Sequence record: NC_025430.1
Reading direction: 5' to 3' (one strand)
DNA length: 42,351 bases
Origin: Escherichia phage vB_EcoM-ep3
The translations under genes were made by a program, and so were the position numbers. Shown here in pieces: positions 8,135-41,571 of the stretch (position 1 is the first letter of the stretch; each line of letters opens with the position of its first letter). The notes beneath the pieces were generated by a model. That model saw only the letters and a list, made by a program, of their open reading frames with translations. It made no database searches and was not told where the DNA came from.

Positions 8135-10444
8135 ATGAGTGCACAACAAAACTATAAGGATTTGACCGAACAGGAAATTGCAGAAGCACTTTCCTACATC
8201 GACGCCGGTTGCGACCGTGAAACATGGGTGCGCATGGCGATGGCGGTTAAATCGGAACTAGGCGACGGCGGTTTCACCGTCTGGAATGACTGGTCACGCC
8301 AGTCTGACAAGTACAACAGCAAAGACGCGCGCGACACCTGGAAATCAGTGAAGCGTCACGGCGGCATTGGCATTGGCACCCTGATTGGTGAGGCGCAGCA
8401 GTTCGGCTTTTCCCTGAACGATGCAGAACGCACGCCGCTGACAGCGGAAGAAATCGACGCACGCAAGCGCAAGCGCGAAGCCGAAGAAAAGGCAGAGCAG
8501 CAGCGCCGCGCCGAACGTATGGCGCAGGCAGCCGAACAGGCGCGCAACATATGGGAATCAGCCACCGAACTGGAAGGCGATGAACACCCCTATTTGCAGC
8601 GCAAGCAGGTGCAGGCGTTCGGCCTGCGCGTTGGGCGGTTCTGGACCGAAAAGCGCAGCATTGATGGTGCGCTACTGGTTCCTGTGCGTAACATTGACGG
8701 GCAGATCACCAGCTTGCAGGCCATCTTCCCGAACGAAAACCCACAGCTAGGGCGTGACCGTGATTATTTGCCTGGCGGCCAGAAGCGCGGATGCTTCCAC
8801 GTCATAGGCGGCAAGCCGACTGGCGGAAGCCCGGTTATTGTCATCTGTGAGGGCTATTCAACCGGCGCGTCAATCCACCAGGCAACCGGCTACTGCGTTG
8901 TAGTGGCGTTTGATGCCGGTAACGTTCCGACCGTGGCCAAGTTGATGCGCCAGCAGTTCGGACGCGCAACAATTGTTGTGGCAGCCGATAACGACCAGTG
9001 GCACGAAGATGGCAAGCAAAATGATGGCGTTCACTACGCGCGCCAGGCCGCAACCACATGCGGTGGCCTGCTGGTGGTTCCGAAGTTCGCCGCATTAAGC
9101 GACAAGCCGACCGACTTTAACGACCTGCACAACCTGCAAGGGCTGGCAGAAGTTAAGCGGCAGATTAACGCCGCAATACCTGAACCGGCAAATGACAACT
9201 TTCTGCCGCTGGATGCAACGGTCAACCCGTTCATGTACCCGCACATGAGCCACCAGCAAAAGCCATTAAGCACCTGGGAAAACCTGGAATGGCTGCTGGA
9301 ACAGTACGGCATCACGGCGCGATATAACGAAATCAGCAAAGATGTGGTGGTGACCATTCCAGGGCGTGACTACGGCGTTGACGCTGCGGCCAACTGTTCC
9401 CTGGCGGAAGTTTCCAGCCTGTGTGCCCGCAACGGTATGCCAAAAGGTGATGTGGGCGACTACATCAAGCTGATTGGCGTGGCCAACCGTTACAACCCGG
9501 CTGCTGATTTCATCACGTCACGGCCATGGGATGGCGTCAGCCGCATTTATGACCTGGTTGACACCCTGACCACGCCGGAAGGCTTTGACCGCAGCCTGGT
9601 GCTGATGATGGTGCGCCGCTGGCTGATTTCTGCCGTGGCTGCCGTCATGAAGCCAACCGGGTTCTGGTCCAAAGGCGTCCTGGTGTTACAGGGTGACCAG
9701 TCATTGGGGAAAACGTCCTGGTTTAAAGCACTGCTGCCGCCGACCATGCGCGACCTGGTGAAAGATGGCGCGACCATCGACCCTAGCAACAAAGACAGCG
9801 TGACCACCGCGATTGGCCACTGGATGGTTGAGCTGGGCGAACTAGATGCAACGTTCCGCAAGGCTGACATTGCCAGGCTGAAATCCTTCATCAGTTCTGA
9901 CGTGGACATGCTGCGCCGCCCTTATGACCGGCTTGAATCGAAGTACCAGCGCCGAACGGTGTTTTTTGCGTCAGTGAACCCCAAACACTTCCTGGCCGAT
10001 GACACCGGGAACGTTCGCTGGTGGACCATTCCGGTGACCGGCGTGAACTACGCCCACGACATCGACACGCAACAGTTATGGGCAGAAGTGGCGCAACTGT
10101 ACCGTGACGGCGAACGCTGGTGGCTGGATCGTGATGAAGAAGCCATGCTGGAAGGCGTCAACAAGGAACACGAATCCATTGACCCGGTAGAGGAAATGAT
10201 ACTGGCGCGCTTTGAGTGGGGCAGCGAACGCATCAGCGCCTACCGCGAACATACCGCCAGCCAGGTGTTGCAGGAAATCGGATTTGATAAGCCGAACAAG
10301 TCACAGGCCACGCATTGCAGTAACGTGCTGCGCAAGCTGACCGGGCAGGAACCGCGCAAGACGAAAAACGGGCGGTTCTTCAACCTGCCGCCGAAGGTGT
10401 TGCAGCCGGATTACCGGCGACCAGATGACAATTCACCGTTTTGA
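8135..10444 (+). CDS. DNA primase-helicase (P4 alpha-like)
   Basis: 769 aa; N-terminal primase-like region, TOPRIM-like acidic motifs (VIVICEGYSTG, VVAADNDQ), C-terminal NTPase region with Walker A QGDQSLGKTS; size and domain order match P4 alpha-type primases. Confidence 0.88.
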   Translation: MSAQQNYKDLTEQEIAEALSYIDAGCDRETWVRMAMAVKSELGDGGFTVWNDWSRQSDKYNSKDARDTWKSVKRHGGIGIGTLIGEAQQFGFSLNDAERTPLTAEEIDARKRKREAEEKAEQQRRAERMAQAAEQARNIWESATELEGDEHPYLQRKQVQAFGLRVGRFWTEKRSIDGALLVPVRNIDGQITSLQAIFPNENPQLGRDRDYLPGGQKRGCFHVIGGKPTGGSPVIVICEGYSTGASIHQATGYCVVVAFDAGNVPTVAKLMRQQFGRATIVVAADNDQWHEDGKQNDGVHYARQAATTCGGLLVVPKFAALSDKPTDFNDLHNLQGLAEVKRQINAAIPEPANDNFLPLDATVNPFMYPHMSHQQKPLSTWENLEWLLEQYGITARYNEISKDVVVTIPGRDYGVDAAANCSLAEVSSLCARNGMPKGDVGDYIKLIGVANRYNPAADFITSRPWDGVSRIYDLVDTLTTPEGFDRSLVLMMVRRWLISAVAAVMKPTGFWSKGVLVLQGDQSLGKTSWFKALLPPTMRDLVKDGATIDPSNKDSVTTAIGHWMVELGELDATFRKADIARLKSFISSDVDMLRRPYDRLESKYQRRTVFFASVNPKHFLADDTGNVRWWTIPVTGVNYAHDIDTQQLWAEVAQLYRDGERWWLDRDEEAMLEGVNKEHESIDPVEEMILARFEWGSERISAYREHTASQVLQEIGFDKPNKSQATHCSNVLRKLTGQEPRKTKNGRFFNLPPKVLQPDYRRPDDNSPF

Positions 10445-14553: not shown

Positions 14554-15033
14554 ATGAAAATTTCATCCAATGGCCTGGCTGTTCTTAAATACTTCGAGAA
14601 TTGCCACCTTAAGGCATATCCAGATCCTGCCACCGGTGGTGCGCCGTGGACGATTGGATGGGGCCACACAGGGCCAGAAGTTAAACGCGGGCTAGTGTGG
14701 ACACAAAAGCAGGCTGATGATGCACTGGTGGCCGACCTGGCACGATTTGAACGCGCAGTTAGTGCCGCCGTTCGTGTTCCGCTGAACCAGGGCCAGTTTG
14801 ATGCGCTGGTTTCGTTCACTTACAACTTGGGTGAAGGCAATCTGAAATCCAGCACGCTGCTGAAAATGGTCAACGCTGGCAACTTTGCCGGTGCTGCTGA
14901 ACAGTTCAAACGCTGGAACAAGGCGAACGGCAAGACGATGCGCGGCCTGACCCGACGCCGTGCCGCTGAACAATGCTTGTTCCTGGGCATGGGTGGTGCG
15001 TCAGCTATTGAACGCGGTGTGGCGGCAGCATGA
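14554..15033 (+). CDS. endolysin (GH24 T4-lysozyme-like)
   Basis: Trimmed to ATG 14554 (MKISSNGL) with GAGGA RBS; FENCHLKAYPD...TIGWGHT motif typical of phage lysozymes. Confidence 0.88.
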   Translation: MKISSNGLAVLKYFENCHLKAYPDPATGGAPWTIGWGHTGPEVKRGLVWTQKQADDALVADLARFERAVSAAVRVPLNQGQFDALVSFTYNLGEGNLKSSTLLKMVNAGNFAGAAEQFKRWNKANGKTMRGLTRRRAAEQCLFLGMGGASAIERGVAAA

Positions 15034-15551
15034 TGGATAAATACGCTACTCCTGTGAAACTCATTGTGGCGATAATCATCGCCTTTGCGCTGGTATCCTT
15101 CGGGTATGTATCAGGGTTCAGCAAATCAGATCGTGAATGGCAGGCCAAATGGTCTGCCCGCGATGCTGCTGACGCACAGGCACGCCAGCAATTTACCGAA
15201 CAACAACGCCGCATTGAAATACAGCGGCAGGGGGCTATTGATGCTATTCAGGAACAAGCACAGCAGGACATTGCTACAGCACAGCGTAATGCTGCCATTG
15301 CTGCTGCTGAGTCTAAGCGCCTGCAAGACGGTATCGCAGACGCCATCACCAGACTACAGGCAGATAGCGGCAATCCCGGCGCTACCATCAGCAGCAAGAC
15401 AAGGGCCAGCACCAGCAGCCTGCTTGCCGAGTTGTTCAGAGAGATTGACGCAGCAGCGGGCATCTATGCAGCAGAGGCTGACAGGGCAAGAGCCGCAGGG
15501 CTGACCTGTGAACGGGCTTACGACGCAGTGAGAGCGACATCACAACAATGA
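15030..15551 (+). CDS. i-spanin (Rz-like)
   Basis: 173 aa; N-terminal transmembrane helix then Q/A/R-rich coiled-coil periplasmic domain; ATGA overlap with the endolysin. Confidence 0.75.
   Translation: MMDKYATPVKLIVAIIIAFALVSFGYVSGFSKSDREWQAKWSARDAADAQARQQFTEQQRRIEIQRQGAIDAIQEQAQQDIATAQRNAAIAAAESKRLQDGIADAITRLQADSGNPGATISSKTRASTSSLLAELFREIDAAAGIYAAEADRARAAGLTCERAYDAVRATSQQ
15289..15504 (+). CDS. o-spanin (Rz1-like lipoprotein) embedded in Rz in the +1 frame
   Basis: Internal ATG at 15289 gives MLPLLLLSLSAC (lipobox LSAC) followed by a proline-rich mature region; fully nested in the Rz gene. Confidence 0.65.
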   Translation: MLPLLLLSLSACKTVSQTPSPDYRQIAAIPALPSAARQGPAPAACLPSCSERLTQQRASMQQRLTGQEPQG

Positions 15552-15715
15552 AAATATTTTCACGCACGACGCAAATAATGCTTGACATCAGCCGAAGTCG
15601 AAAAAGTCAAGGTACTTCCGAGGGGGGTACAGCCTGCGGGGGCATTGGTCCCGCCTAATTCGCGTTGTGCGTGGATAATCAAAATCGATTTTAGCATTAG
15701 ATAAGGCGGCATTAA
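15552..15715. other. candidate cos/packaging-site region
   Basis: ORF-free 164 bp between the spanin stop and the Nu1-like small terminase start; contains G-rich element GAGGGGGGTACAGCCTGCGGGGGCATTGGTCCCGCC (15621-15656). Position matches lambda cos (inference only). Confidence 0.3.
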
Positions 15716-16240
15716 TTGGCTAAAACAATAAAAGGCCGAACAGTAAACCGCAGCGGCCTGGCGGAAGTTTTCGGGGTAGCACCGCCAACAGTTGACCAGT
15801 GGCGAAAAGACGGCGCGCCCTACGTAACACTTGGCGGGCGTGGTAAAGAATGGGAGTACGACACCGCGCAGGTGGCGGCCTGGTTGCGTGAACGCGATGT
15901 GAAGGCGGCCACCGGCGACGTGATGGCGGATGAAACGGAATTGAAGCGCCGCAAGCTGGCAGCCGAAACCGAAAAAGCAGAACTGGAACTGGCCAAAGCC
16001 AAAGGCGAAGTGGCACCACTGGACCAGGTTGAACGCGCCGTTGCCCGCGCCTTCGCGGAAGTGCGCGCCGGGATGCGCAACCTGCCACAGCGCACCGTTT
16101 CAATGCTTATCGGTGAAACCGATGAACGCCGGTTCAAATCGGTGATGATGGGCGAAATTGACGAAGTGCTGAAATCACTGGTGACCGCTTCCCTGCTGGA
16201 TGGCTATGACGAAGGGGGCGACGGTGACAGCGAAGAATAA
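15716..16240 (+). CDS. terminase small subunit (lambda Nu1-like)
   Basis: About 174 aa; N-terminal HTH (LAEVFGVAPPTVDQWRKDGAPY) and overall layout resemble lambda Nu1; TTG start at 15716 after AAGGCGG (start uncertain); 3' end overlaps the large-subunit gene. Confidence 0.78.
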   Translation: MAKTIKGRTVNRSGLAEVFGVAPPTVDQWRKDGAPYVTLGGRGKEWEYDTAQVAAWLRERDVKAATGDVMADETELKRRKLAAETEKAELELAKAKGEVAPLDQVERAVARAFAEVRAGMRNLPQRTVSMLIGETDERRFKSVMMGEIDEVLKSLVTASLLDGYDEGGDGDSEE

Positions 16241-18248
16241 CCCGTTTGCCAACATTGAAGGCATTGACCAGGCTATCCGGCGCGCACAACAACAATTGTT
16301 GCCGCCGCCAGACATGAAGCCGTCAGAGTGGGCGCAGGCTAATATCCGCATTCCGTCTGGCAACGCCGTGCCAGGACCGCTGCGCCTGGATAACGCGCCA
16401 TACCAGCGCGAACCAATGGACATGCTGGTTGACCCTGATTGCTACCGTGTAACGCTGATGTGGGGCGCGCAGGTGGGCAAAACCATGCTGGCACTGTGCG
16501 TGCAGGCGTACAGCGTAGCCGCTGAACCGCGCAGCCAGATGATGATGCAGCCAAGCCAGGATGACTTGCGCACCTGGCTGGAAACGAAATTCAACCCTCT
16601 GGCGGAAGAATGCGCGCCGGTAAACAACGCCATTGCCAAACCGCGTGGCCGCGACGGGGTGAACAACCAGAAAATGAAATCATACCCTGGCGGGTTCTTG
16701 ATGTTCGCCTGGTCCGGTTCGCCAAAGACCATGCGCGGGCGTTCAGCGCCGCTGATTGTATGTGACGAGGTAGACGGATATGAACGAACCAGCGAAGGGC
16801 ACCCGGTTGGCCTGCTGTGGCAGCGTTCTGCCACCTTCGGTGACCAGCGGTTTTTGCTGGAAATCAGCACCCCTACCCTTAAAGGTGAATCGTACATCGA
16901 AAAAGCGTATGAAATGGGCGACCAGCGGCACTTCTTTGTTTGCTGCCCGCACTGTGACGATCACGTTACGCTTGAATGGGAAAACGTCAAATGGGATGGC
17001 CAGCGGGAAACTGACGCGGAAACGCTGGCGGCCATCGAAGAACAGAAGCCGGAAACAGCGCACCTGTATTGCCCATCGTGCGGCGCGCAGTGGAATGACG
17101 GCGAACGGATAGCGGCTATCCGTCAGGCCGAAGAAAAGGGCGCAGGCTGGAAGGCGTCCAGGCCGTTTGAAGGGCACGCAAGCTACCACCTGAACGAACT
17201 ATACAGCACATTCCGCAAAGTACCGGCCATCGTGCGTGACTACCTGGACAAGCTGAAAACGGACGACCTGCAAACCTTCACCAACGTCAGCCTGGCGCGC
17301 ACCTGGGAAGAAGAAGGCGACAAGGTTGACCCGGATTCACTGATGGCACGCCGCGAGGAATACGCCGCGCAGGTGCCTGCTGGTGGGCTGTATATCACCG
17401 CAGGCATAGACATGCAGGTTGACCGCCTGGAATGTGAGGTGGTGGCCTGGGGCGTTGGTGAAGAATCCTGGTCATTGGGTTACCACGTCCTGTGGGGCGA
17501 CCCTCTGACGCCAGATCCGTGGGATGCGCTTGATGACCTGCTGGCGGAAACCTACCAGCACGAAACCGGCGCAGTGCTGCCGATCATGGCCGCCTGCCTG
17601 GATACCGGCGGCACCAGCGGTTACACGCAGGCCGCCTATGACTACGCCAGAGGGCGCACAGGCCGCCGCCTGTTTGCCATCAAAGGAGTGGGCGGTTGGG
17701 GTCGTCCTATCGTGGAGAAGCCGCAGCGCAAGCAATCCGGGAAGGATGCCCGCAAAGTGGATTTATTCCTGGTGGGCACCGATGAAGCCAAGCTGATAAC
17801 TGCACGCCGTTTAAACAAGACGGCACCGGGGCCAGGTTATTGCCACTTCCCTGCTGACCGCGATGAAGAATGGTTTAAGCAAATCACCGCTGAAAAGCTG
17901 ACCATGCGTTACGTGAAGGGCCAGCCAATCCGCGAGTGGAAGAAACCCGACCGGGCGCGCAACGAAGCACTGGACTGCCGCAACTATGCGCTGGCCGCGC
18001 TTAAAATCATGCAGCCGTCATTCCGCCGCCTGGCTGAAAAGTTTGGCGTAGCGAACGACAACGCGCCACCGGAACGCCGCAAGCGGCTTCCGAACGTCAA
18101 ACCCATCGTGAAACCGGTGGAAGTGCCGCAACCGGCCAATGACAAACCCCAAGAAGAAGAAAAACAGCAAGTCACAGAGACTAAGCCCATTAAACGTTCC
18201 GCCAGGGCATCCAAACGCCGTGGCGGTGGATGGGTTAGCCGCTGGTGA
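16200..18248 (+). CDS. terminase large subunit (lambda gpA-like)
   Basis: 682 aa; Walker A-like MWGAQVGKT, CPHCDDH zinc-binding-like segment; overlaps the small-subunit gene as in lambda Nu1/A. Confidence 0.9.
   Translation: MAMTKGATVTAKNNPFANIEGIDQAIRRAQQQLLPPPDMKPSEWAQANIRIPSGNAVPGPLRLDNAPYQREPMDMLVDPDCYRVTLMWGAQVGKTMLALCVQAYSVAAEPRSQMMMQPSQDDLRTWLETKFNPLAEECAPVNNAIAKPRGRDGVNNQKMKSYPGGFLMFAWSGSPKTMRGRSAPLIVCDEVDGYERTSEGHPVGLLWQRSATFGDQRFLLEISTPTLKGESYIEKAYEMGDQRHFFVCCPHCDDHVTLEWENVKWDGQRETDAETLAAIEEQKPETAHLYCPSCGAQWNDGERIAAIRQAEEKGAGWKASRPFEGHASYHLNELYSTFRKVPAIVRDYLDKLKTDDLQTFTNVSLARTWEEEGDKVDPDSLMARREEYAAQVPAGGLYITAGIDMQVDRLECEVVAWGVGEESWSLGYHVLWGDPLTPDPWDALDDLLAETYQHETGAVLPIMAACLDTGGTSGYTQAAYDYARGRTGRRLFAIKGVGGWGRPIVEKPQRKQSGKDARKVDLFLVGTDEAKLITARRLNKTAPGPGYCHFPADRDEEWFKQITAEKLTMRYVKGQPIREWKKPDRARNEALDCRNYALAALKIMQPSFRRLAEKFGVANDNAPPERRKRLPNVKPIVKPVEVPQPANDKPQEEEKQQVTETKPIKRSARASKRRGGGWVSRW
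18141..18157 (+). repeat. 17-bp motif GACAAACCCCAAGAAGA, copy 1
   Basis: Exact copy inside the terminase 3' end, in frame encoding DKPQEE; 114 bp upstream of the GTG start at 18255. Confidence 0.9.
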
Positions 18249-18254
18249 TAAATA

Positions 18255-18794
18255 GTGAAAAACTGCCAAGTACCGCAGAAAATTACTGCTGGATTGACAT
18301 TTGAGACGCGCCTGACGCTTCCCGGCTATCCTGCAACTGAATGGGCTGTTCAGCTACTGCTGCGCGGCCCGCAGTCAATTAACATCAACGCCGTCGCTGA
18401 TGGTAACGATCACGTCATCCGCGCAGCCGCTGGCGTCACTGCAACGTGGCCAGCAGGCGATTACTGGTATTCGCTGCGCGCGACCAAAGGCGATGACGTT
18501 ATGGAGGCCGGAAACGGCCAGATTACCATCCTGCCAGACCTGGCCAGCGCCAGTGATGGATTTAACGGGAAAACTCACGCGCAACGCACCCTGGAAGCCA
18601 TTGAAGCGGTCATAGAGAAGCGCGCGACAATGGACCAGGAACGCTACCGCATCAATAACCGCGAGTTATATCGCACCCCGATTGCGGATTTGCTGAAACT
18701 GCGCGACTTGTACCGCCTGGAAGTAGCACGCGAAAAACAGGCGCAGTGCGGCAAAAACCCGTTCGGGCGTAAAGTTCGGGTGAGCCTTCGCTGA
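18255..18794 (+). CDS. putative head-tail joining protein (gpW-like C-terminal region, N-terminal extension)
   Basis: 179 aa; GTG start with GGTGA RBS; sits between terminase and portal where lambda gpW lies; C-terminal segment loosely gpW-like. Confidence 0.4.
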   Translation: MKNCQVPQKITAGLTFETRLTLPGYPATEWAVQLLLRGPQSININAVADGNDHVIRAAAGVTATWPAGDYWYSLRATKGDDVMEAGNGQITILPDLASASDGFNGKTHAQRTLEAIEAVIEKRATMDQERYRINNRELYRTPIADLLKLRDLYRLEVAREKQAQCGKNPFGRKVRVSLR

Positions 18795-20350
18795 TGAAAC
18801 TGTGGCCATTTACCAGAAACAAGCCTGCCGAACAGGCACAACAGCCGCGCACGCGGCGTTTACCGCTTAACCGCCTGGCGTCCCGTATGTTTACCGGTGC
18901 CAGTGTTGACCGTTTTGGCACCGCGTGGGGTACACAGCCGCTGACGGCTGATGAAGTCATTACCAAAAATCAACGCATCCTGGTGGCCCGTTCCCGCGAA
19001 CAGGCCGCCAACAATGATTATGCCAAAAAGTTCCTGCGTCTGTGCCGCACAAACATTGTGGGGCCAAAAGGCGTTCTGTTGCAGGCAAAAAGCCAGGATA
19101 ACACCGGAAAACTGGACACCCTGGCGAATGAAGCCATTGAACTGGCGTTTGACGCATGGGGCAAAAAGACCAACTGTGACGTGACCGGTAAGTTGTCCTG
19201 GCGCGCCATCCAGGCCGCCTGCGTCAACAGCGTGGCCAAAGACGGTGAATTCTTCGTGCGCCTGGTGTTTGGGGCTGACGCAGGGCCGTGGGGCTTCTCG
19301 CTGCAACTGCTGGACCCGCAACGCTGTCCTGTGGACATGGTTGAAGATCGACTGCCAAACGGAAATTTCATCCGCCAGGGAATCGAGTTTAACCGATACG
19401 GGCGGCCTATCGCGTATTATTTCAGCACAGTTGATGAATCGGATGAAAACTACCGTTGGGCTGGGCGTGACTTCGTGCGCGTGCCTGCGGATGAAATCCT
19501 GCACGGTTTCTTTGATGACATGGTGGGCCAGAAACGCGGCCTGCCCTGGATGGCCACCAGCCTGTTTCGTATGCGCCACCTGGGCGGCATGGAAGAAGCC
19601 GCACTGGTCAACGCGCGAGCAGGTGCCAACAAAATGGGGTTCATCGAATGGGATGAAAACGGCGCTGGACCTGAATTCGACGATGAAGACGAACTGATCA
19701 TTGACAGTGAACCGGGTGAATTCCAGGTGCTGCCACAGGGCGCACGCATCAAAGACTGGTCACCGCAATACCCCAACGGCGAATTTGCCGTGTTCACCAA
19801 ACAGATGCTGCGCGGCATGGCTTCTGGCATGGGCGTGGCTTACAACAACCTGGCCAACGACCTGGAAGGCGTCAATTTCAGTTCCATCCGACAGGGCACG
19901 CTTGACGAGCGCGAAAGCTGGAAGGAATTGCAGGAATGGCTAATCGAAAACCTGCACCAGCCTGTTTTTGACGCCTGGCTGCCGCGCGCCCTGCTGTCTG
20001 GACGCATCACGGTGAAAGGCCGCAGCCTGAAACCGGAACGCATAGACCGTTACAGCAATATTGAATGGCAGCCACGCCGTTGGGCCTGGATTGACCCGTC
20101 ATCTGACGTGGAAGCGGCTGAAAAATCAAAAAACAACATGCTGCAATCGCCTGGCCGCATCATCCGTGAAGGTGGCAGCGACCCTGACACCGTTTGGAAG
20201 GAAACCGCTAGCGACGTGGCACGCATGATTGAGGCGTACACGCAGCACGGTATCAGCCGAGAAATGGCGGAAAAACTGGTCATGCAAAGCATGGGCATGG
20301 ACAAAACACTGTTAATGGGGCAGCAAAATGCAGAAAAACCTGCTGAATAG
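18794..20350 (+). CDS. portal protein (lambda gpB-type)
   Basis: 518 aa, directly after the terminase/gpW-like genes; size and position match lambda-type portals. Confidence 0.88.
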   Translation: MKLWPFTRNKPAEQAQQPRTRRLPLNRLASRMFTGASVDRFGTAWGTQPLTADEVITKNQRILVARSREQAANNDYAKKFLRLCRTNIVGPKGVLLQAKSQDNTGKLDTLANEAIELAFDAWGKKTNCDVTGKLSWRAIQAACVNSVAKDGEFFVRLVFGADAGPWGFSLQLLDPQRCPVDMVEDRLPNGNFIRQGIEFNRYGRPIAYYFSTVDESDENYRWAGRDFVRVPADEILHGFFDDMVGQKRGLPWMATSLFRMRHLGGMEEAALVNARAGANKMGFIEWDENGAGPEFDDEDELIIDSEPGEFQVLPQGARIKDWSPQYPNGEFAVFTKQMLRGMASGMGVAYNNLANDLEGVNFSSIRQGTLDERESWKELQEWLIENLHQPVFDAWLPRALLSGRITVKGRSLKPERIDRYSNIEWQPRRWAWIDPSSDVEAAEKSKNNMLQSPGRIIREGGSDPDTVWKETASDVARMIEAYTQHGISREMAEKLVMQSMGMDKTLLMGQQNAEKPAE

Positions 20351-22376
20351 CATCATTGGGGCCGAATTTACCCGCAAATCAGACAGCAAAACGCTGCCTG
20401 ATTTCAACAAAGGCGGGCTGGTGCGCACTATGGAAGTGCGCAAGTTTGACACCGAAAAACGCACCGTAGAACTGGCGTTTTCCTCCGAAATCGAGGTTGA
20501 ACGCTGGTACGGTATCGAAATTCTGGACCATTCGCCGGAAAGCGTGCGCCTGGACCGTCTGCGTGACGGTGGGGCGCTGCTGGTTGACCACGATTGGACT
20601 GACCAGGTGGGCGTTGTTGAATCCGTCAGCATTGACGCTGACCGCCGGGGGCGGGCTGTGGTGCGCTTTGGCCGAAGTGCACGCGCTGACGAGATTTTCC
20701 AGGACATCGTTGACGGCATTCGCAAGCATGTTTCCGTTGGCTACCGCGTGTTAGCGGCCAAGCTACAGGAAACGCGTGACGAGTGGCAGGATGTCTACCG
20801 CATCACTGAATGGGAACCGTTCGAAATTTCAATTGTGAGCGTTCCCGCTGACACCAGCGTTGGCATTGGGCGTGCGTTTGACAAACCCCAAGAAGAACAA
20901 CGCGGCATCAAATCCGATACTGCGGGCACCGTAGAGGTTCCAGCACCAAAAAAATCATTTGAGGATTCACGAATGTTAGAAAAAATTCTGCGCGACGCTG
21001 CCGGTAACCTGGTGCGCGCGATGGTAGACGAGAAAGGCAACATCACGCAGGTTCTGGAAATGCTGGAACGTGCTGGCGATGATGCGCGCAACGCTGAACA
21101 GCGTGGCCGTGAAGCGGAAAAGGCGCGCGTGCGTTCCATCACTGAAATGGGCGAGAAGTACAACGCACGTGACCTGGCTTTGAAAGCTATTGGCGAAGGC
21201 ACCACCGCCGAAGATTTCCAGCGTTCCTTGCTGGACCACCTGAACAAGCCGAAAGACCCGGCACAACCGGCTGATGACACCCGTTCCGGCAGCAAGCCGC
21301 TGTCAGAAATGCCGTCCAGCGTGATTGGTATGTCTGACAAAGACATCCGCCGCTATAGCATTTTCAACGTGGTTCGCGCGCTGGCTAACCCGAACGATGC
21401 AGCCGCACAGCGTGCCGCAGCGTTTGAAATCGAATGCAGCCACGCAGCGCAACAGCAGTATGGCCGCAGTGCAAAAGGCATCCTGATCCCTGACGATGTT
21501 CTGCGCGCATTCAACGCTGGTGGCGCACCGAACACCCCGACAGGTGCACAGACCGGTTCCAACCTGGTTGGCACTGACTTTATGGCCAGTTCGTTCATCG
21601 ACCTGCTGCGCCCGCGTACCACCATCATGCGCCTGGCGCGTACTATGGGCGGCCTGGTTGGCAACGTTGAAATTCCGAAACAGACTGGCGGCGCTACTGC
21701 CTACTGGATTGGTGAAGGTGATGACGCAACCGAAACCACGCCGACCATCGGCCAGCTTAGTTTGTCACCGAAAACCGTTGCGGCTTACACCGACATTACC
21801 CGCCGCCTGCTGATGCAATCCACCCCGGATGCGGAAGCTATCGTGCGCGGTGACCTGGTGGCAGCTATCGCGCAGGCGATTGATTACGCTGGCTACTACG
21901 GCACCGGCACCAGCAACCAGCCGCTGGGTCTGGCGAACTACACCGGCATTAATGCGGTAGACTTCGCAGCAGCCAACCCGACTTATGCGGAACTGGTGCA
22001 GATGGAAACCGAAATCGCGGCTGACAACGCTGACGTGAACAACATGGCATATGTGCTGAACGCGCGTGGCCGTGGTGCAGCGAAAACCACGCCGAAGTTT
22101 GCCAGTGGTTCTTCCGTGGCTGACGCTGGCGTGATTTGGGAACCGGGCAACACCCTGAACGGTTACCGCGCCGAAGTTACCAACCAGGTTCAGGATGGTG
22201 ACGTGTTCTTTGGCAACTTCGCTGACTTGGTTGTTGGTATGTGGGGCGGCCTGGACATGACGGTTGACCCGTATAGCCTGAGCAAATCCGGTGGCCTGCG
22301 CATCGTGGTATTCCAGGACGTGGATTTTGCGGTGCGCCGCGTTGAATCCTTCTGCCTGGGCCGCAACGCAGCATAA
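20328..22376 (+). CDS. prohead protease-scaffold-major capsid fusion protein (HK97-fold)
   Basis: 682 aa; N-terminal about 200 aa prohead-protease-like, central charged coiled-coil, C-terminal about 350 aa HK97-like major capsid region; internal in-frame ATG at 20973 with GAGGA RBS. Confidence 0.85.
   Translation: MQKNLLNSIIGAEFTRKSDSKTLPDFNKGGLVRTMEVRKFDTEKRTVELAFSSEIEVERWYGIEILDHSPESVRLDRLRDGGALLVDHDWTDQVGVVESVSIDADRRGRAVVRFGRSARADEIFQDIVDGIRKHVSVGYRVLAAKLQETRDEWQDVYRITEWEPFEISIVSVPADTSVGIGRAFDKPQEEQRGIKSDTAGTVEVPAPKKSFEDSRMLEKILRDAAGNLVRAMVDEKGNITQVLEMLERAGDDARNAEQRGREAEKARVRSITEMGEKYNARDLALKAIGEGTTAEDFQRSLLDHLNKPKDPAQPADDTRSGSKPLSEMPSSVIGMSDKDIRRYSIFNVVRALANPNDAAAQRAAAFEIECSHAAQQQYGRSAKGILIPDDVLRAFNAGGAPNTPTGAQTGSNLVGTDFMASSFIDLLRPRTTIMRLARTMGGLVGNVEIPKQTGGATAYWIGEGDDATETTPTIGQLSLSPKTVAAYTDITRRLLMQSTPDAEAIVRGDLVAAIAQAIDYAGYYGTGTSNQPLGLANYTGINAVDFAAANPTYAELVQMETEIAADNADVNNMAYVLNARGRGAAKTTPKFASGSSVADAGVIWEPGNTLNGYRAEVTNQVQDGDVFFGNFADLVVGMWGGLDMTVDPYSLSKSGGLRIVVFQDVDFAVRRVESFCLGRNAA
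20880..20896 (+). repeat. 17-bp motif GACAAACCCCAAGAAGA, copy 2
   Basis: Exact copy inside the capsid fusion ORF, same reading frame (DKPQEE); 93 bp upstream of the internal start at 20973. Confidence 0.9.
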
Positions 22377-32921: not shown

Positions 32922-33427
32922 TGGCCGCACGTGACGTTTTGAAAAACATCAACTTATTTGTTGATGGCCGTGGTTACGCGGGCCAGGTGGAGAGCGTCAC
33001 GCCGCCCACCTTAACCCTGCAAACCGAAGAATTCCGCGCAGGCGGCATGGATGCGCCCATTGATGTGACGTTGGGCATGGAAAAGCTGGAAGCCAGCTTT
33101 GCGCTGCGTGCTTATGATTCTGACGTGCTGGCGCTGTTTGGCCTGTCAGAAGGTGCAAGCGTTCCGCTGACGTTTCGCGGTGCGCTAGAATCCTATGACG
33201 GCAGCGTGAAAGCCGTTGTCATGAACATGCGCGGCAAAATCACCAGCATGGAGCCAGGCACCTGGACGCCTGGGGAACTGAGTTCCCTTAACGTCACTGT
33301 CAGCCTGAACTATTTCAAGCAGCAGCATAACGGAAAGACCATCCACGAAATCGACGTGGAAAACATGGTGCGCATCATCAACGGTGTAGACACCCTGGCA
33401 GCCATCCGTTCTGCGCTGGCGCTGTAA
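32921..33427 (+). CDS. tail tube protein (P2 FII-like)
   Basis: 168 aa; directly follows the sheath with stop/start overlap; size and position match FII. Confidence 0.88.
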   Translation: MAARDVLKNINLFVDGRGYAGQVESVTPPTLTLQTEEFRAGGMDAPIDVTLGMEKLEASFALRAYDSDVLALFGLSEGASVPLTFRGALESYDGSVKAVVMNMRGKITSMEPGTWTPGELSSLNVTVSLNYFKQQHNGKTIHEIDVENMVRIINGVDTLAAIRSALAL

Positions 33428-33974: not shown

Positions 33975-34658
33975 ATGAAGAAAGTAACCAAGAGTGAGGC
34001 GATAGAGCAAGGGCTTAATTATTACTTTACTGGTAAGCCATGTAAGCATGGGCACGTCAGCGAAAGGTATATAAAAGGCGGAGCTTGCGTGGCTTGCCAG
34101 AGAATTAAAAGCAAAGAGTTCAGTAAAAACAATGTTGAATCAGAAAGGATTAGGAAGCATCTAGATTATCTTGCGCACAAGGAAGAAAGGAACGAGAGAA
34201 ATAAATCTTGGCAAAAAAGAAACAGGGCAAAAGTCTCAGAGTATGTTGCAAAATGGAGGAAAAAAAACAGGGAGAAGGTGAACGAAATGGCCGCTGAGTT
34301 AAGGCGCAAAAACCCAGAAAAGCAAAAAGAGGCTGACAGGAGATGGAGAGCAAAAAACAAACACAAGGTGGCCAAGAAAGACGGTCTTAAAAGGGCAGCA
34401 AAACTGGCAAGAATTCCAGTTTGGTTTGGTGAATTTGATGATTTTGTGATTCAGGAAGCGCACACGCTGGCAGCGTTAAGAGGTGATGAAACCGGAATAC
34501 CCTGGCACGTTGACCACATGTTGCCAATGAGGGGGAGAAAAATTTCCGGGTTACACTGCGCGCATAATATCCAGGTGATTCCGGCAGCCATGAATGTGAG
34601 AAAAATCAACAAAATGGTTTTGACCAACCCACTAGAGTGGTTACGCGATGGCGTCTAA
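33975..34658 (+). CDS. HNH endonuclease (free-standing, homing-type)
   Basis: 227 aa; N-terminal Cys/His cluster (CKHGH...CVACQ), C-terminal HNH-like motif WHVDHMLP...LHCAHNIQVIPAAMNVRK; lysine-rich middle; AT-rich; inserted between chaperone and tape-measure. Confidence 0.65.
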   Translation: MKKVTKSEAIEQGLNYYFTGKPCKHGHVSERYIKGGACVACQRIKSKEFSKNNVESERIRKHLDYLAHKEERNERNKSWQKRNRAKVSEYVAKWRKKNREKVNEMAAELRRKNPEKQKEADRRWRAKNKHKVAKKDGLKRAAKLARIPVWFGEFDDFVIQEAHTLAALRGDETGIPWHVDHMLPMRGRKISGLHCAHNIQVIPAAMNVRKINKMVLTNPLEWLRDGV

Positions 34659-37005
34659 CAAGAAATTATCTGCAACAATAGTAATTGGCGGTGCCGTATC
34701 CAGCAGCCTGAAAGGCGCATTCAGCACCGTCAAATCTTCCGTTGACCAGGTTGGCGCAGCAATGGCCAAACTGGAACGCGAGCAACGACAACTAACCAAC
34801 GCCATCCAGACGTTTGGCCGCCAGGGCAAAAACGTTGATTCACTGCGCGCCAAGTACGCCGCCAACGTTTCTGCGGTGGACAAACTGCGCGCAGCCACCG
34901 AACGCCTGAAACGCGTGGAGGATGCCCGCGAACGCAACCTGGCGAAGCGCGACCAATACAAAGATGGGATCATGGGCACCATTGCCCTGGGTGCCACTAT
35001 CGCCGCGCCAATCAAAGCCGCGATGGATTTTGAAAGCACCGTTGCCGACATCAAAAAGGTAGTGGATGCGCCGAAGGGTGCCGACGAAGATACTTTCTTC
35101 AAAGCCATCAGCAAACAGGTTTTGGATATGTCCAAAACCCTGCCGATGACGGCCAACGAAATTGGCCGCATCTTTGCGCTTGGCGGCCAGTCTGGCATCG
35201 CAGCCGAAGATTTGGGCAAGTTCACAGAATCAGCCGTAAAAATGGGCGTGGCGTTTGATGTCAGCGCGGAACAGGCTGGCCAGTCAATGGCGGAACTGCG
35301 TTCTGCTTTCGGCATGACGCAAGACCAGGTGAACACGCTGGCCGACCAGATGAACTACCTGGACAACAACGGCAGCGCCGCAGCAAAAGATATTCTGGAA
35401 ATCGTCCAGCGCGTTGGGCCGCTTGGCAAGGTTGCTGGCACTGCTGCCGGTCAGATCGCCGCGATGGCATCAACACTGCGCGGCATGGGTGTGCAGAATG
35501 AAGTTGCCGCAACCGGCATTCAAAACTTCATGCTGGCGCTCACTGCTGGTGATGCTGCCACGAAGTCACAGAGGGCGGCCCTTGCCGAATTAGGCTACGG
35601 TTCACGCGAAGTGGCGAAGTCAATGCAGTTGGATGCGCAAAAAACCATGACGGTGATTCTGAAACAAATCAGAAAACTACCGAAGTGGAAACAGGCGTCA
35701 GCACTAACTGATTTATTCGGCAAAGAGTCGATTAAGGCCATCGCACCACTGCTGGATCAGCTTGAACAGCTTGAAGATAACTTCGCAAAGGTAGCCGACA
35801 AATCGAAGTATGCCGGTTCCATGCAGAAAGAATTTGAAGCGCGCGCGGCCACCACAGCAAACCAGCTTATTTTGTTCCGTAACCAGATCACCGGCCTGGG
35901 CGTCACGATTGGTTCAGTCCTGCTTCCTGCGGTCAACAGCGTCCTGCAAACCGTTGGGCCGTGGATTGGCAAAATCACTGAACTGGCTGACGCGCACCCG
36001 GTTGTCACCAAAGCCATTGTGGCCACGGCTGGCGCACTAATTACCATGCGCATTGCCACGTTTGCGGCTGGCTTCGCTTTCACGTACCTGCGCGGCGGCG
36101 CGCTGCGTGTTGTGGGTGCCCTGGCTGGTGCCCGCGCACAGATGGCACTGACGGCGGTTTCCGCGCGTGCAGTGGGTGCCGCAGCTACCGTGGCCAACGG
36201 CGGCCTGGTGGGCATGGCATCACGTGGAATCCCTGCCGTTGTTACTGGCGTGCGCGCCATCGGTGCGGCGTTCATTTCCACCGGCATTGGTGCCCTGATT
36301 ACCGGCCTGGCGCTTGGCGGCCTGTGGATTTACCGCAATTGGGCTGGCGTCAAAGCGTTCATGACCGGCACTTTGCAGGGCATCCAGCAAGGGTTGCAGC
36401 CTGTTACGGAGAAATTCCAGGCGCTGTGGGATAAGTTAGGACCAGTCAAAACCGCTTTCCAGTGGGTTGCTGACGCTGCTGGCAAGGCGTGGGATTGGTT
36501 CACCAAACTGGCCGAACCGGTGAGCTACAGCGGCGAAGAACTGAAAAAGGCCGGTGACGCTGGCCAGCAGTTCGGCAAGGCGCTGGCGGCAGGTATTGAT
36601 TTTGTGTTGGGGCCGATTCAGTTCCTGATTGATAAGATCATTTGGGTTTCTGACAACATTGGCGCGCTGACGCAAAAAGCCGTTGAGTTCAAAAACAGCG
36701 TTTCTGACATGGCTGGTGGTGCCTGGCAGAAAACGAAAGACTTTTTCAGCAACCCGTTTGGCGATGACGCGCCGCAGGGCAACGCGCTGACGACGCCGCA
36801 GACACCGGCCAGCGCATTGCCAGCGCCTGCCCTGGCGAACCGTGGCGGCAGTACATACACCGACAGCAGCACAACCACCATTCAGGTGACGCAGCGCCCT
36901 GGTGAGAACAACGCAGACCTGGCCAAACGCATTGCCGACGAACAGGAGCGCCGACGCCAAGTGCGCCAGCGCAGCATGATGAATGACGGAGTGACGGCAC
37001 CATGA
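34648..37005 (+). CDS. tail tape measure protein
   Basis: 785 aa; Ala/Gly-rich, long helical composition; position between chaperone and gpU. Confidence 0.9.
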   Translation: MASNKKLSATIVIGGAVSSSLKGAFSTVKSSVDQVGAAMAKLEREQRQLTNAIQTFGRQGKNVDSLRAKYAANVSAVDKLRAATERLKRVEDARERNLAKRDQYKDGIMGTIALGATIAAPIKAAMDFESTVADIKKVVDAPKGADEDTFFKAISKQVLDMSKTLPMTANEIGRIFALGGQSGIAAEDLGKFTESAVKMGVAFDVSAEQAGQSMAELRSAFGMTQDQVNTLADQMNYLDNNGSAAAKDILEIVQRVGPLGKVAGTAAGQIAAMASTLRGMGVQNEVAATGIQNFMLALTAGDAATKSQRAALAELGYGSREVAKSMQLDAQKTMTVILKQIRKLPKWKQASALTDLFGKESIKAIAPLLDQLEQLEDNFAKVADKSKYAGSMQKEFEARAATTANQLILFRNQITGLGVTIGSVLLPAVNSVLQTVGPWIGKITELADAHPVVTKAIVATAGALITMRIATFAAGFAFTYLRGGALRVVGALAGARAQMALTAVSARAVGAAATVANGGLVGMASRGIPAVVTGVRAIGAAFISTGIGALITGLALGGLWIYRNWAGVKAFMTGTLQGIQQGLQPVTEKFQALWDKLGPVKTAFQWVADAAGKAWDWFTKLAEPVSYSGEELKKAGDAGQQFGKALAAGIDFVLGPIQFLIDKIIWVSDNIGALTQKAVEFKNSVSDMAGGAWQKTKDFFSNPFGDDAPQGNALTTPQTPASALPAPALANRGGSTYTDSSTTTIQVTQRPGENNADLAKRIADEQERRRQVRQRSMMNDGVTAP

Positions 37006-41030: not shown

Positions 41031-41571
41031 TAACATACAGCTTATACTACCTGCCGCAGACGCGCGAGGCGATGAATAAATGGGAAATATTGTTGCGAAA
41101 TGCACTTGCGTGATATAGGATTAAATTGTCAGTTGTAGAGATTCACGCTGTCGAGAGATACACGATGACCGCCGTGAAAGGACGGCACACAACAGGTAAG
41201 AGCATTGAACCCGTAGACCTCGCGGATTTGGTGAAAGGTGCCGCGCATTGCTCTTTCCGTTGTGGTGAATGCGCAGGCTGATGCGCGACCAATGTATAAA
41301 CAGCGCTCATGGCAAGCAGTAACCAATCTGCGCCTCAAGACAGCGTCACTGGTAGTGCGGGCGCTCTAACCAGTAAGCCGGAGTTCAGCACCGGCCACCA
41401 CAACACGCGCCGTGATGCGCTTTTGCGAACACTTCCAACCACCAGGGTGTTACCTCGCAACGTGAAAGCGCATCGCAGTGCGACATTCGCACAGACTGGA
41501 ACTTACCAGACTAGTGATTCCAATAAGGCAGGTGATCTGTATCTCGCATCACAGCGTCACGTGACACAAAA

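Follow-up and report, generated by a model that had tools for sequence, protein, structure and literature searches.

What is the function of the short gap between the lysis and packaging genes of Escherichia phage vB_EcoM-ep3, and does it hold the site at which the terminase cuts the phage DNA? The window analyzed here (NC_025430.1; 42,351 nucleotides (nt)) is the complete genome of this myophage, a member of Jilinvirus (subfamily Iiscvirinae), and is colinear, at ~90-95% identity, with the genomes of Escherichia phage Alux-21, Salmonella phage PT1, and phage ECO1230-10. The gap, at positions 15552-15715, separates the last lysis gene from the packaging genes. A first-pass annotation had proposed, from position, a cohesive-end (cos) region at this place, immediately upstream of a Nu1-like small terminase gene. 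The proposal is now supported beyond position, by the genome ends of relatives, by the Nu1/gpA type of the terminase, and by the presence of a 73-bp core of the site on unrelated mobile elements of ~9 kb. Positions 15598-15715 very probably represent the cos site of the phage, organized on the plan of phage lambda. With reasonable confidence, the feature is real, located to the base, and essentially ordinary for a phage with a gpA/Nu1 terminase.

The cos assignment is supported because the ends of relatives' records place the cut inside the G-rich element at 15621-15656. All the evidence on ends comes from database records of relatives, which belong to several genera, and the GenBank records of the linear ones end inside this element. 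Positions 41289 and 1 of the linear record of phage ECOO78 (KY705409) map to positions 15639 and 15651 of the window, and the 13-mer GGGGCATTGGTCC is found at both ends of this record. PPpW-3, which belongs to another genus, has a 13-nt repeat shared by the suffix and the prefix of its record, GGGGCATAGACTC, in exactly the same register. The records of KA2-1 and MQ-4 each begin with a 13-mer of their own (GGGGCAGTGCCAC and GGGGCATTGACTC, respectively); in both, the same 13-mer recurs near the other end and is directly followed by a foreign tail of ~58 nt (the regions concerned are 43598-43668 in KA2-1 and the last ~70 nt in MQ-4). The KA2-1 tail is a direct copy of internal positions 33110-33166. 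Such tails are likely to be chimeric-read artefacts formed at a physical DNA end, in which case these records are too long by the length of the tail, and their location after the 13-mer argues against a pure annotation convention. The FoX3 record starts directly after the homologous 13-mer; the ends of the FoX phages come from PhageTerm and were confirmed through Sanger primer walking (PMC9151335). The Mano record carries a misc_feature, 'cohesive end predicted by PhageTerm', at positions 1-7 (CAAGGCC), and its other end reads ...CCTGCGGGGG (PMC7849712). Most of the related records, those of seven phages besides ECOO78, KA2-1, and Arya, have their start 73-93 nt upstream of terS. Throughout Iiscvirinae and related phages, the homologous site shows the same GCG^GGG... 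left boundary (the caret marks the cut), with a GGTMCTTCC box upstream and a TnTGnGnG box downstream. No annotation of cosQ, cosN, or cosB was present in the relatives' records that were fetched, the 7-nt 'cohesive end' of Mano being the only related feature, and a description of the cos site was not found in the searchable literature on Jilinvirus, ECOO78, Arya, ECO1230-10, and MQ-4, which did not cover the original papers on PPpW-3 and ECO1230-10.

The genes to the right of the gap encode a terminase of the type that cuts at lambda-like cos sites. The terS gene (15716..16240, + strand, TTG start, the same start being annotated in relatives) encodes a Nu1-like small terminase (PF07471, 43.9 bits against a cutoff of 30) with an N-terminal winged helix-turn-helix of the Nu1 type, which matches the DNA-binding domain of lambda gpNu1 (1J9I, E=1.9e-9) and TerS 6HN7 (E=2.4e-10). 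The adjacent terL gene (16200..18248, + strand) encodes a large terminase of the gpA family with ATPase and endonuclease domains (PF05876, E=3.5e-75; PF20454, E=1.9e-98), and is followed by one open reading frame (ORF; 18255-18794) and then by a lambda-family portal gene. As in lambda, the order is lysis genes, cosQ, cosN, cosB, terS, terL.

The 13-mer identified at the ends of the ECOO78, PPpW-3, KA2-1, and MQ-4 records corresponds in the window to a putative 13-nt 5' cohesive end, GGGGCATTGGTCC (15639..15651, + strand). It is centered in a partial dyad, GCGGGnnCAnTGnnCCCGC, that itself is centered on 15645 and is the predicted cosN (15636..15654), with a top-strand nick expected at 15638^15639 and a bottom-strand nick at 15651^15652. 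The dyad has 7 symmetric pairs out of 9 in the window and 8 of 9 in KA2-1; at least 7 pairs are reached by only 0.2% of the 19-mers in the window. The CG dinucleotide is present just outside both predicted nicks (TGCG^GGGG...GTCC^CGCC), nine family members share GCGGG at 15636-15640 without variation, and, within the sticky end, the left half (GGGGCA) is conserved across the family, with a variable right half. The same combination, that is, CG outside the nicks, a conserved left and a variable right half of the sticky end (G-rich on the left), and partial two-fold symmetry of cosN, has been described for lambda-like phages by Feiss and colleagues (PMC4669245). The end itself differs from that of lambda: it is 13 nt long, against 12, and its sequence is not closely similar to GGGCGGCGACCT, the 12-nt end as defined in PMC4669245, only the G-rich left edge being lambda-like. 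The polarity of the cohesive ends would be 5', as in lambda, because end repair of 5' overhangs yields a sequence that is present at both ends of assembled linear records, as the 13-mer is.

Upstream of cosN, a cosQ-like heptamer, AGGTACT (15610..15616, + strand), lies 22 nt from the left nick, with an extended conserved box, GGTACTTCC, at 15611-15619. All nine family sequences have the GGTMCTTCC box at the corresponding position. The heptamer reads GGGTCCT, identical to lambda cosQ, in Arya, KA2-1, PPpW-3, Mano, FoX3, and one of the ~9-kb elements (L031), and is followed in the phages by TCC. Lambda cosQ, at 48473-48479, is located 23 nt from the lambda nick, and the box of the relatives, 21-22 nt upstream of theirs. 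When lambda was compared with PPpW-3 over the cosQ-cosN segment, the similarity reached z=3.3 and was matched by 6 of 2000 shuffles. In lambda, cosQ is needed for nicking the downstream cos when packaging ends (PMC4669245), and by analogy, the box at 15610-15616 may serve as the packaging termination signal.

To the right of the cut, the most conserved segment of the whole site is the cosB-proximal block CGCCTAATTCGCGTTGTGCGTGG (15652..15674), which includes TGTGCGTGG at 15666-15674. Its mean identity is 94% among phages and 92% with the ~9-kb elements included, and TnTGnGnG within it is invariant across nine family members. This block is the best candidate for the binding site of the Nu1-like winged helix-turn-helix of TerS. 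The adjoining segment, 15675..15715, combines the predicted distal cosB with the terS leader and contains an A/T palindrome, AAAATCGATTTT (15681-15692), an ATTAGAT motif, and AAGG (15703-15706) as the ribosome-binding site. Phages and ~9-kb elements alike retain the pattern CAAAA...TTTA..ATTA, with divergent bases in between. The putative cosB thus defined spans only ~64 bp, compared with ~120 bp in lambda. In this respect, it resembles the 'simple' cosB of the N15 type, which is likewise short and may need no more than one proximal TerS site (Feiss et al. 2015, PMC4669245), the candidate here being 15652-15674; the window shows no sequence similarity to the N15 R3/rR2 sites.

Alongside the observed gene content, sequence conservation, dyad symmetry, and record ends of relatives, we infer the exact nicks in this phage, the assignment of proteins to blocks, and the role of cosQ, which together would amount to the following mechanism. 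TerS would bind the conserved block to the right of the cut (15652-15674, probably extending to terS) and position TerL, of the gpA type, on cosN (15636-15654) with its partial symmetry. TerL would then introduce one nick at 15638^15639 (top strand) and one at 15651^15652 (bottom strand), and strand separation would leave 13-nt 5' cohesive ends, GGGGCATTGGTCC, such that the replicated DNA is cut to genome length. The DNA would enter the head rightwards, the terS end first, and the cosQ-like box at 15610-15616 would enable the terminating cut once the next cos of the concatemer is reached.

Part of this site recurs outside the phages. A megablast search of positions 15500-15800 against 5426 complete Escherichia coli genomes detected no prophage, but 48 chromosomes contain only 15601-15673 (query positions 102-174), at 94-99% identity. 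These 73 bp, which contain cosN together with the cosQ-like box and the first 22 bp to the right, form the cos core common to the phage and the ~9-kb elements; the core was also found on all 8 of the 8 circular ~9-kb contigs inspected and in the IMG/VR loci L028 and L031. The element loci analyzed comprise L020-L023 (E. coli chromosomes), L028, L031, and L033-L040. In the integrated form (4 of the 4 loci inspected), the core is intergenic, in a ~9.3-kb element inserted between yhdJ and fis and bounded by a 17-bp direct (attachment, att) repeat that includes the 3' end of fis. This element encodes an integrase, AlpA, a primase of the VapE/PriCT_2 type, a tape-measure protein, and small unknown proteins; apart from the first four, the element proteins gave no sequence match in Pfam, PHROG, NCBIfam, or PDB. 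The primase and the tape-measure protein are 66% and 65% identical, respectively, to the phage's own proteins, and the phage primase gene (9236-10402) and tape-measure gene (34654-37002) are the only regions besides cos that are shared with the elements. Within the latter, a 524-bp stretch (36223-36746 in the window) is 93% identical between phage and element at the nucleotide level, which suggests recent recombination between the two.

The first gene after cos in the element encodes a protein whose AlphaFold model (predicted local distance difference test score (pLDDT) 76.9; predicted template modeling score (pTM) 0.74) matches HK97-fold capsid proteins: 220 PDB chains were retrieved at E<=0.001, including capsids of the P4 and SaPIbov5 systems. 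The best match of a profile of this protein among the window ORFs, the head-protein ORF at 20316-22373, was not significant (E=0.055). Dozens of stand-alone contigs, 8.9-9.5 kb in length and derived from E. coli, Salmonella, Enterobacter, Cronobacter, and metagenomes, carry homologues of the capsid gene. Eight of these were inspected (8.98-9.17 kb); all lack an integrase, each carries the cos core, and because they are mutually permuted, with terminal overlaps of k-mer size, they represent circles. The elements carry no terS or terL, and no homologues of Sid, Psu, Delta, or Rpp were detected in them.

Elements of 8.98-9.35 kb that lack a terminase, have a helper-type cos, their own primase, and an HK97-fold capsid protein, and are either integrated through an integrase at att sites or episomal, probably constitute a satellite family of Jilinvirus phages. 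No description of them was found in the searchable literature. Satellites with a helper's cos are known: P4 has the cos of P2, phage-inducible chromosomal islands (PICIs) in E. coli carry cos sites of the lambda/phi80 type (PMC6092414, PMC6739421), and SaPIbov5 combines the helper cos with Ccm, a homologue of a capsid protein (PDB 7RWZ). The ~9-kb elements resemble all three in being small, terminase-less, and equipped with the cosQ/cosN core of the helper, with an integrated ~9-kb form organized as int-alpA-primase, and the HK97-fold capsid gene adjoining their cos recalls Ccm of SaPIbov5. They differ in that the presumed helper is a Jilinvirus-type myophage, that they also encode a tape-measure protein, and that many copies are integrase-less circles. 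Retention of just cosQ, cosN, and the proximal cosB by elements without a terminase supports a packaging function of the core, and the retained span roughly marks its limits. On balance, we favor the view that 15601-15673 is the shared packaging signal of a helper-satellite pair, the elements being packaged by the Jilinvirus terminase, probably in remodelled particles; Jilinvirus phages may mobilize them. A degenerate cosN-cosB pattern, used to search 100,044 species-representative genomes, gave a single match, in a metagenome-assembled genome of Ca. Viridilinea (Chloroflexota), which was judged to be due to chance because no homologue of the terminase, Rz-like spanin, endolysin, or portal of the phage is encoded nearby.

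Several observations weigh against the assignment of the gap to a lambda-type cos site cut at these positions. The evidence on ends comes from records of relatives, some of which might have been rotated to match earlier ones. The Arya paper states that the DNA of this phage is terminally redundant and circularly permuted (PMC5754474), and the Arya record (KX231828) begins 4 nt upstream of the 13-mer, at TGCG; the overhang predicted by PhageTerm in Mano is 7 nt, not 13; and the start of the FoX1 record is offset by 2 nt to the right relative to the homologous boundary. Neither the R3/R2/R1 triplet of TerS sites nor the integration host factor (IHF) site I1 that characterize lambda cosB is apparent: the stretch contains only a 9-nt direct repeat in two copies and inverted repeats, and the IHF consensus WATCAANNNNTTR (with at most one mismatch) is absent from 15552-15715, the whole window having 26 matches against 30 expected by chance; the single conserved block at 15652-15674 could be one TerS site. 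The dyad and the G-richness are each unremarkable alone. The G-rich element that the first-pass annotation had singled out at 15621-15656 is present (16 G in 36 nt, with G-runs at 15622-15627 and 15638-15642, two of only 12 runs of at least five G in the window), but its composition is not significant, given that 599 of 42316 36-nt segments (1.4%, ~69 places) are equally G-rich; G-richness was therefore rejected as evidence. The box in the window, AGGTACT, matches lambda cosQ at 5 of 7 positions and differs at 2, and the overall similarity of the window to lambda cos is weak (z=1.7). The earlier claim of no match to lambda cos is nevertheless only partly right, because the cosQ box of the relatives is identical to that of lambda; CG outside the nicks and the conserved left half of the sticky end are lambda-like as well.

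The discrepant ends of Mano, FoX1, and Arya would be accommodated if the gap is a cos site of another geometry, with an overhang of 7 nt (Mano) or ~15 nt (FoX1), a cut shifted by 4 nt (Arya), or 3'-protruding ends, the 5' polarity being derived solely from the end duplication in assembled records. The Alux-21 record (PQ589898) is in line with this possibility in that 4 nt (GCGG or CGGG) are missing from it precisely at the predicted left nick (window-equivalent 15636-15640); as a consequence, a 50-aa 'hypothetical protein' is annotated across cos. The 4-nt gap could be either an assembly artefact at a physical end or a real variant. We consider a different geometry unlikely. ECOO78, PPpW-3, KA2-1, and MQ-4, which represent three lineages, agree on both boundaries of the 13-mer even though the 13-mers themselves differ. 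Terminases of the gpA type leave 5' overhangs, as established for lambda, and PhageTerm is imprecise at the base level when applied to tagmented libraries. Furthermore, the position of the 13-mer at the center of the dyad and the CG outside each nick are as in lambda (PMC4669245).

Headful (pac) packaging of circularly permuted DNA, with the stretch limited to a leader or regulatory function and annotation convention as the source of the shared record ends, would agree with the Arya statement and with the deposition of the ECO1230-10, PT1, and HeidiAbel records as circular. Yet gpA/Nu1 terminases with a lambda-family portal are cos enzymes, and the terminase of this phage is of that type, with fixed homologous ends in the records of relatives. 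A convention also leaves unexplained the 13-nt terminal repeats in the same register (ECOO78, PPpW-3) and the chimeric tails (KA2-1, MQ-4), as well as the retention of just these 73 bp by the satellites, and Mano and the FoX phages have been typed as fixed-ended by PhageTerm or Sanger sequencing (PMC7849712, PMC9151335). The published statement on Arya is probably wrong, considering that its record starts 4 nt from the family 13-mer and that a gpA/Nu1 terminase is present; amplification by polymerase chain reaction across annealed or ligated cos ends would also be expected to succeed, yielding the same junction products. Headful packaging thus appears extremely improbable, and the cos site remains the preferred interpretation.

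To the left of the cosQ-like box, conservation is of a different kind. An invariant box, GCTTGACA (15580..15587, + strand), is 100% identical in pairwise comparisons between phages (8 Jilinvirus genomes and PPpW-3) and looks like a perfect -35 hexamer with no -10 element at 16-18 nt; it is absent from the satellites. The next 22 nt, 15588-15609, are hypervariable even among close relatives and form lineage-specific short inverted repeats. The box overlaps the left arm of a long inverted repeat (CACGCACGACGC...TTGAC, 15561..15586) that pairs with 15648-15673, that is, with an arm covering most of the cosB-proximal block. The arms are complementary at 20 of 26 positions, against a mean of 15.0 and a maximum of 19 in 200 dinucleotide shuffles. 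The flanking inverted repeats reported in the first-pass annotation are hence real, but they are not conserved in all relatives: the left arm is present in ECO1230-10, PT1, Alux-21, HeidiAbel, and partly in KA2-1, and because it is missing in ECOO78, Arya, and the satellites, it falls outside the conserved core. Possibly, this arm represents a second copy of the cosB-proximal block in inverted orientation. The ends of the repeat are CACGCAC (15561-15567) and its complement GTGCGTG (15667-15673); lambda has CCACGCAC (~48429-48436) 43 nt upstream of its cosQ, the distance for the window counterpart being 49 nt. The CACGCAC element is not conserved in ECOO78, Arya, or the satellites, and its likeness to lambda may be either a coincidence or a shared element.

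The invariance of GCTTGACA among phages raises the question whether the conserved elements of the gap serve only transcription or translation of the late operon, as a promoter at this box, a terminator of the lysis operon, or a 36-aa gene. The gap is bounded on the left by the gene for an Rz-like i-spanin (DUF2514; 15030..15551, + strand; PF10721, E=8.5e-27), the last gene of the lysis cassette in the ORF list, and between its end and the terS start at 15716, the only overlapping ORFs are short ones, of 40 aa (+ strand), 50 aa (- strand), and 36 codons (15548-15658), none of them with a PHROG match. The 36-codon ORF overlaps the stop codon of the Rz-like gene by ATGA and has its TAA stop inside cos. 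In favor of a gene, it is open, with equal length, in 6 of the 8 Jilinvirus genomes, and the variable base before the stop is at a third codon position. However, ECOO78 retains only 12 codons of it, Alux-21 has a frameshift, and the conserved residues do no more than reflect conserved boxes in the DNA. The ORF is probably not a gene, and the small ORFs of the gap were ruled out as genes for these reasons, in agreement with the description of the stretch ahead of the terminase genes as ORF-free. Neither a sigma-70 promoter nor an intrinsic terminator was called in 15552-15715, and Rfam gave no family there at permissive thresholds. In addition, the satellites keep the cosQ-cosN core without GCTTGACA. 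A purely regulatory role of the conserved elements is therefore very unlikely, whereas such a role for 15552-15609 is compatible with the cos function of 15610-15715.

As listed, terS and terL overlap by 41 nt (16200-16240). Relatives annotate later terL starts, at window-equivalent positions 16206 (ECOO78) and 16224 (KA2-1, ECO1230-10), so the true start of terL is uncertain. ARAGORN predicted no tRNA genes in the window (1-42351); tRNA genes are reported in relatives such as Arya and HeidiAbel, in Arya beside an integrase pseudogene.

Compared with lambda, a lambdoid siphovirus, the phage studied here is an Iiscvirinae myovirus. The lambda cosQ box and the rule of CG-flanked nicks appear to reach a distant myovirus lineage with a 13-nt overhang, which suggests that these contacts belong to the gpA terminase family and not to lambdoid phages alone. 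The cos site would show where Jilinvirus genomes truly end and how they are correctly mapped in linear form, and would correct the claim of permutation for this group; several of these phages have been put forward as therapeutic agents, and their records have arbitrary starts or are labelled 'circular'. As a cassette of ~120 bp, it could be of use in cosmid-like packaging or transduction tools. A satellite family exploiting Jilinvirus phages, which emerged as a by-product of the analysis, would matter more than the cos site itself, and is relevant to the safety of phage therapy because such elements could be mobilized. If the phages and the ~9-kb elements are indeed a helper-satellite pair, the limits of the sequence retained by the elements would define the minimal functional cos.

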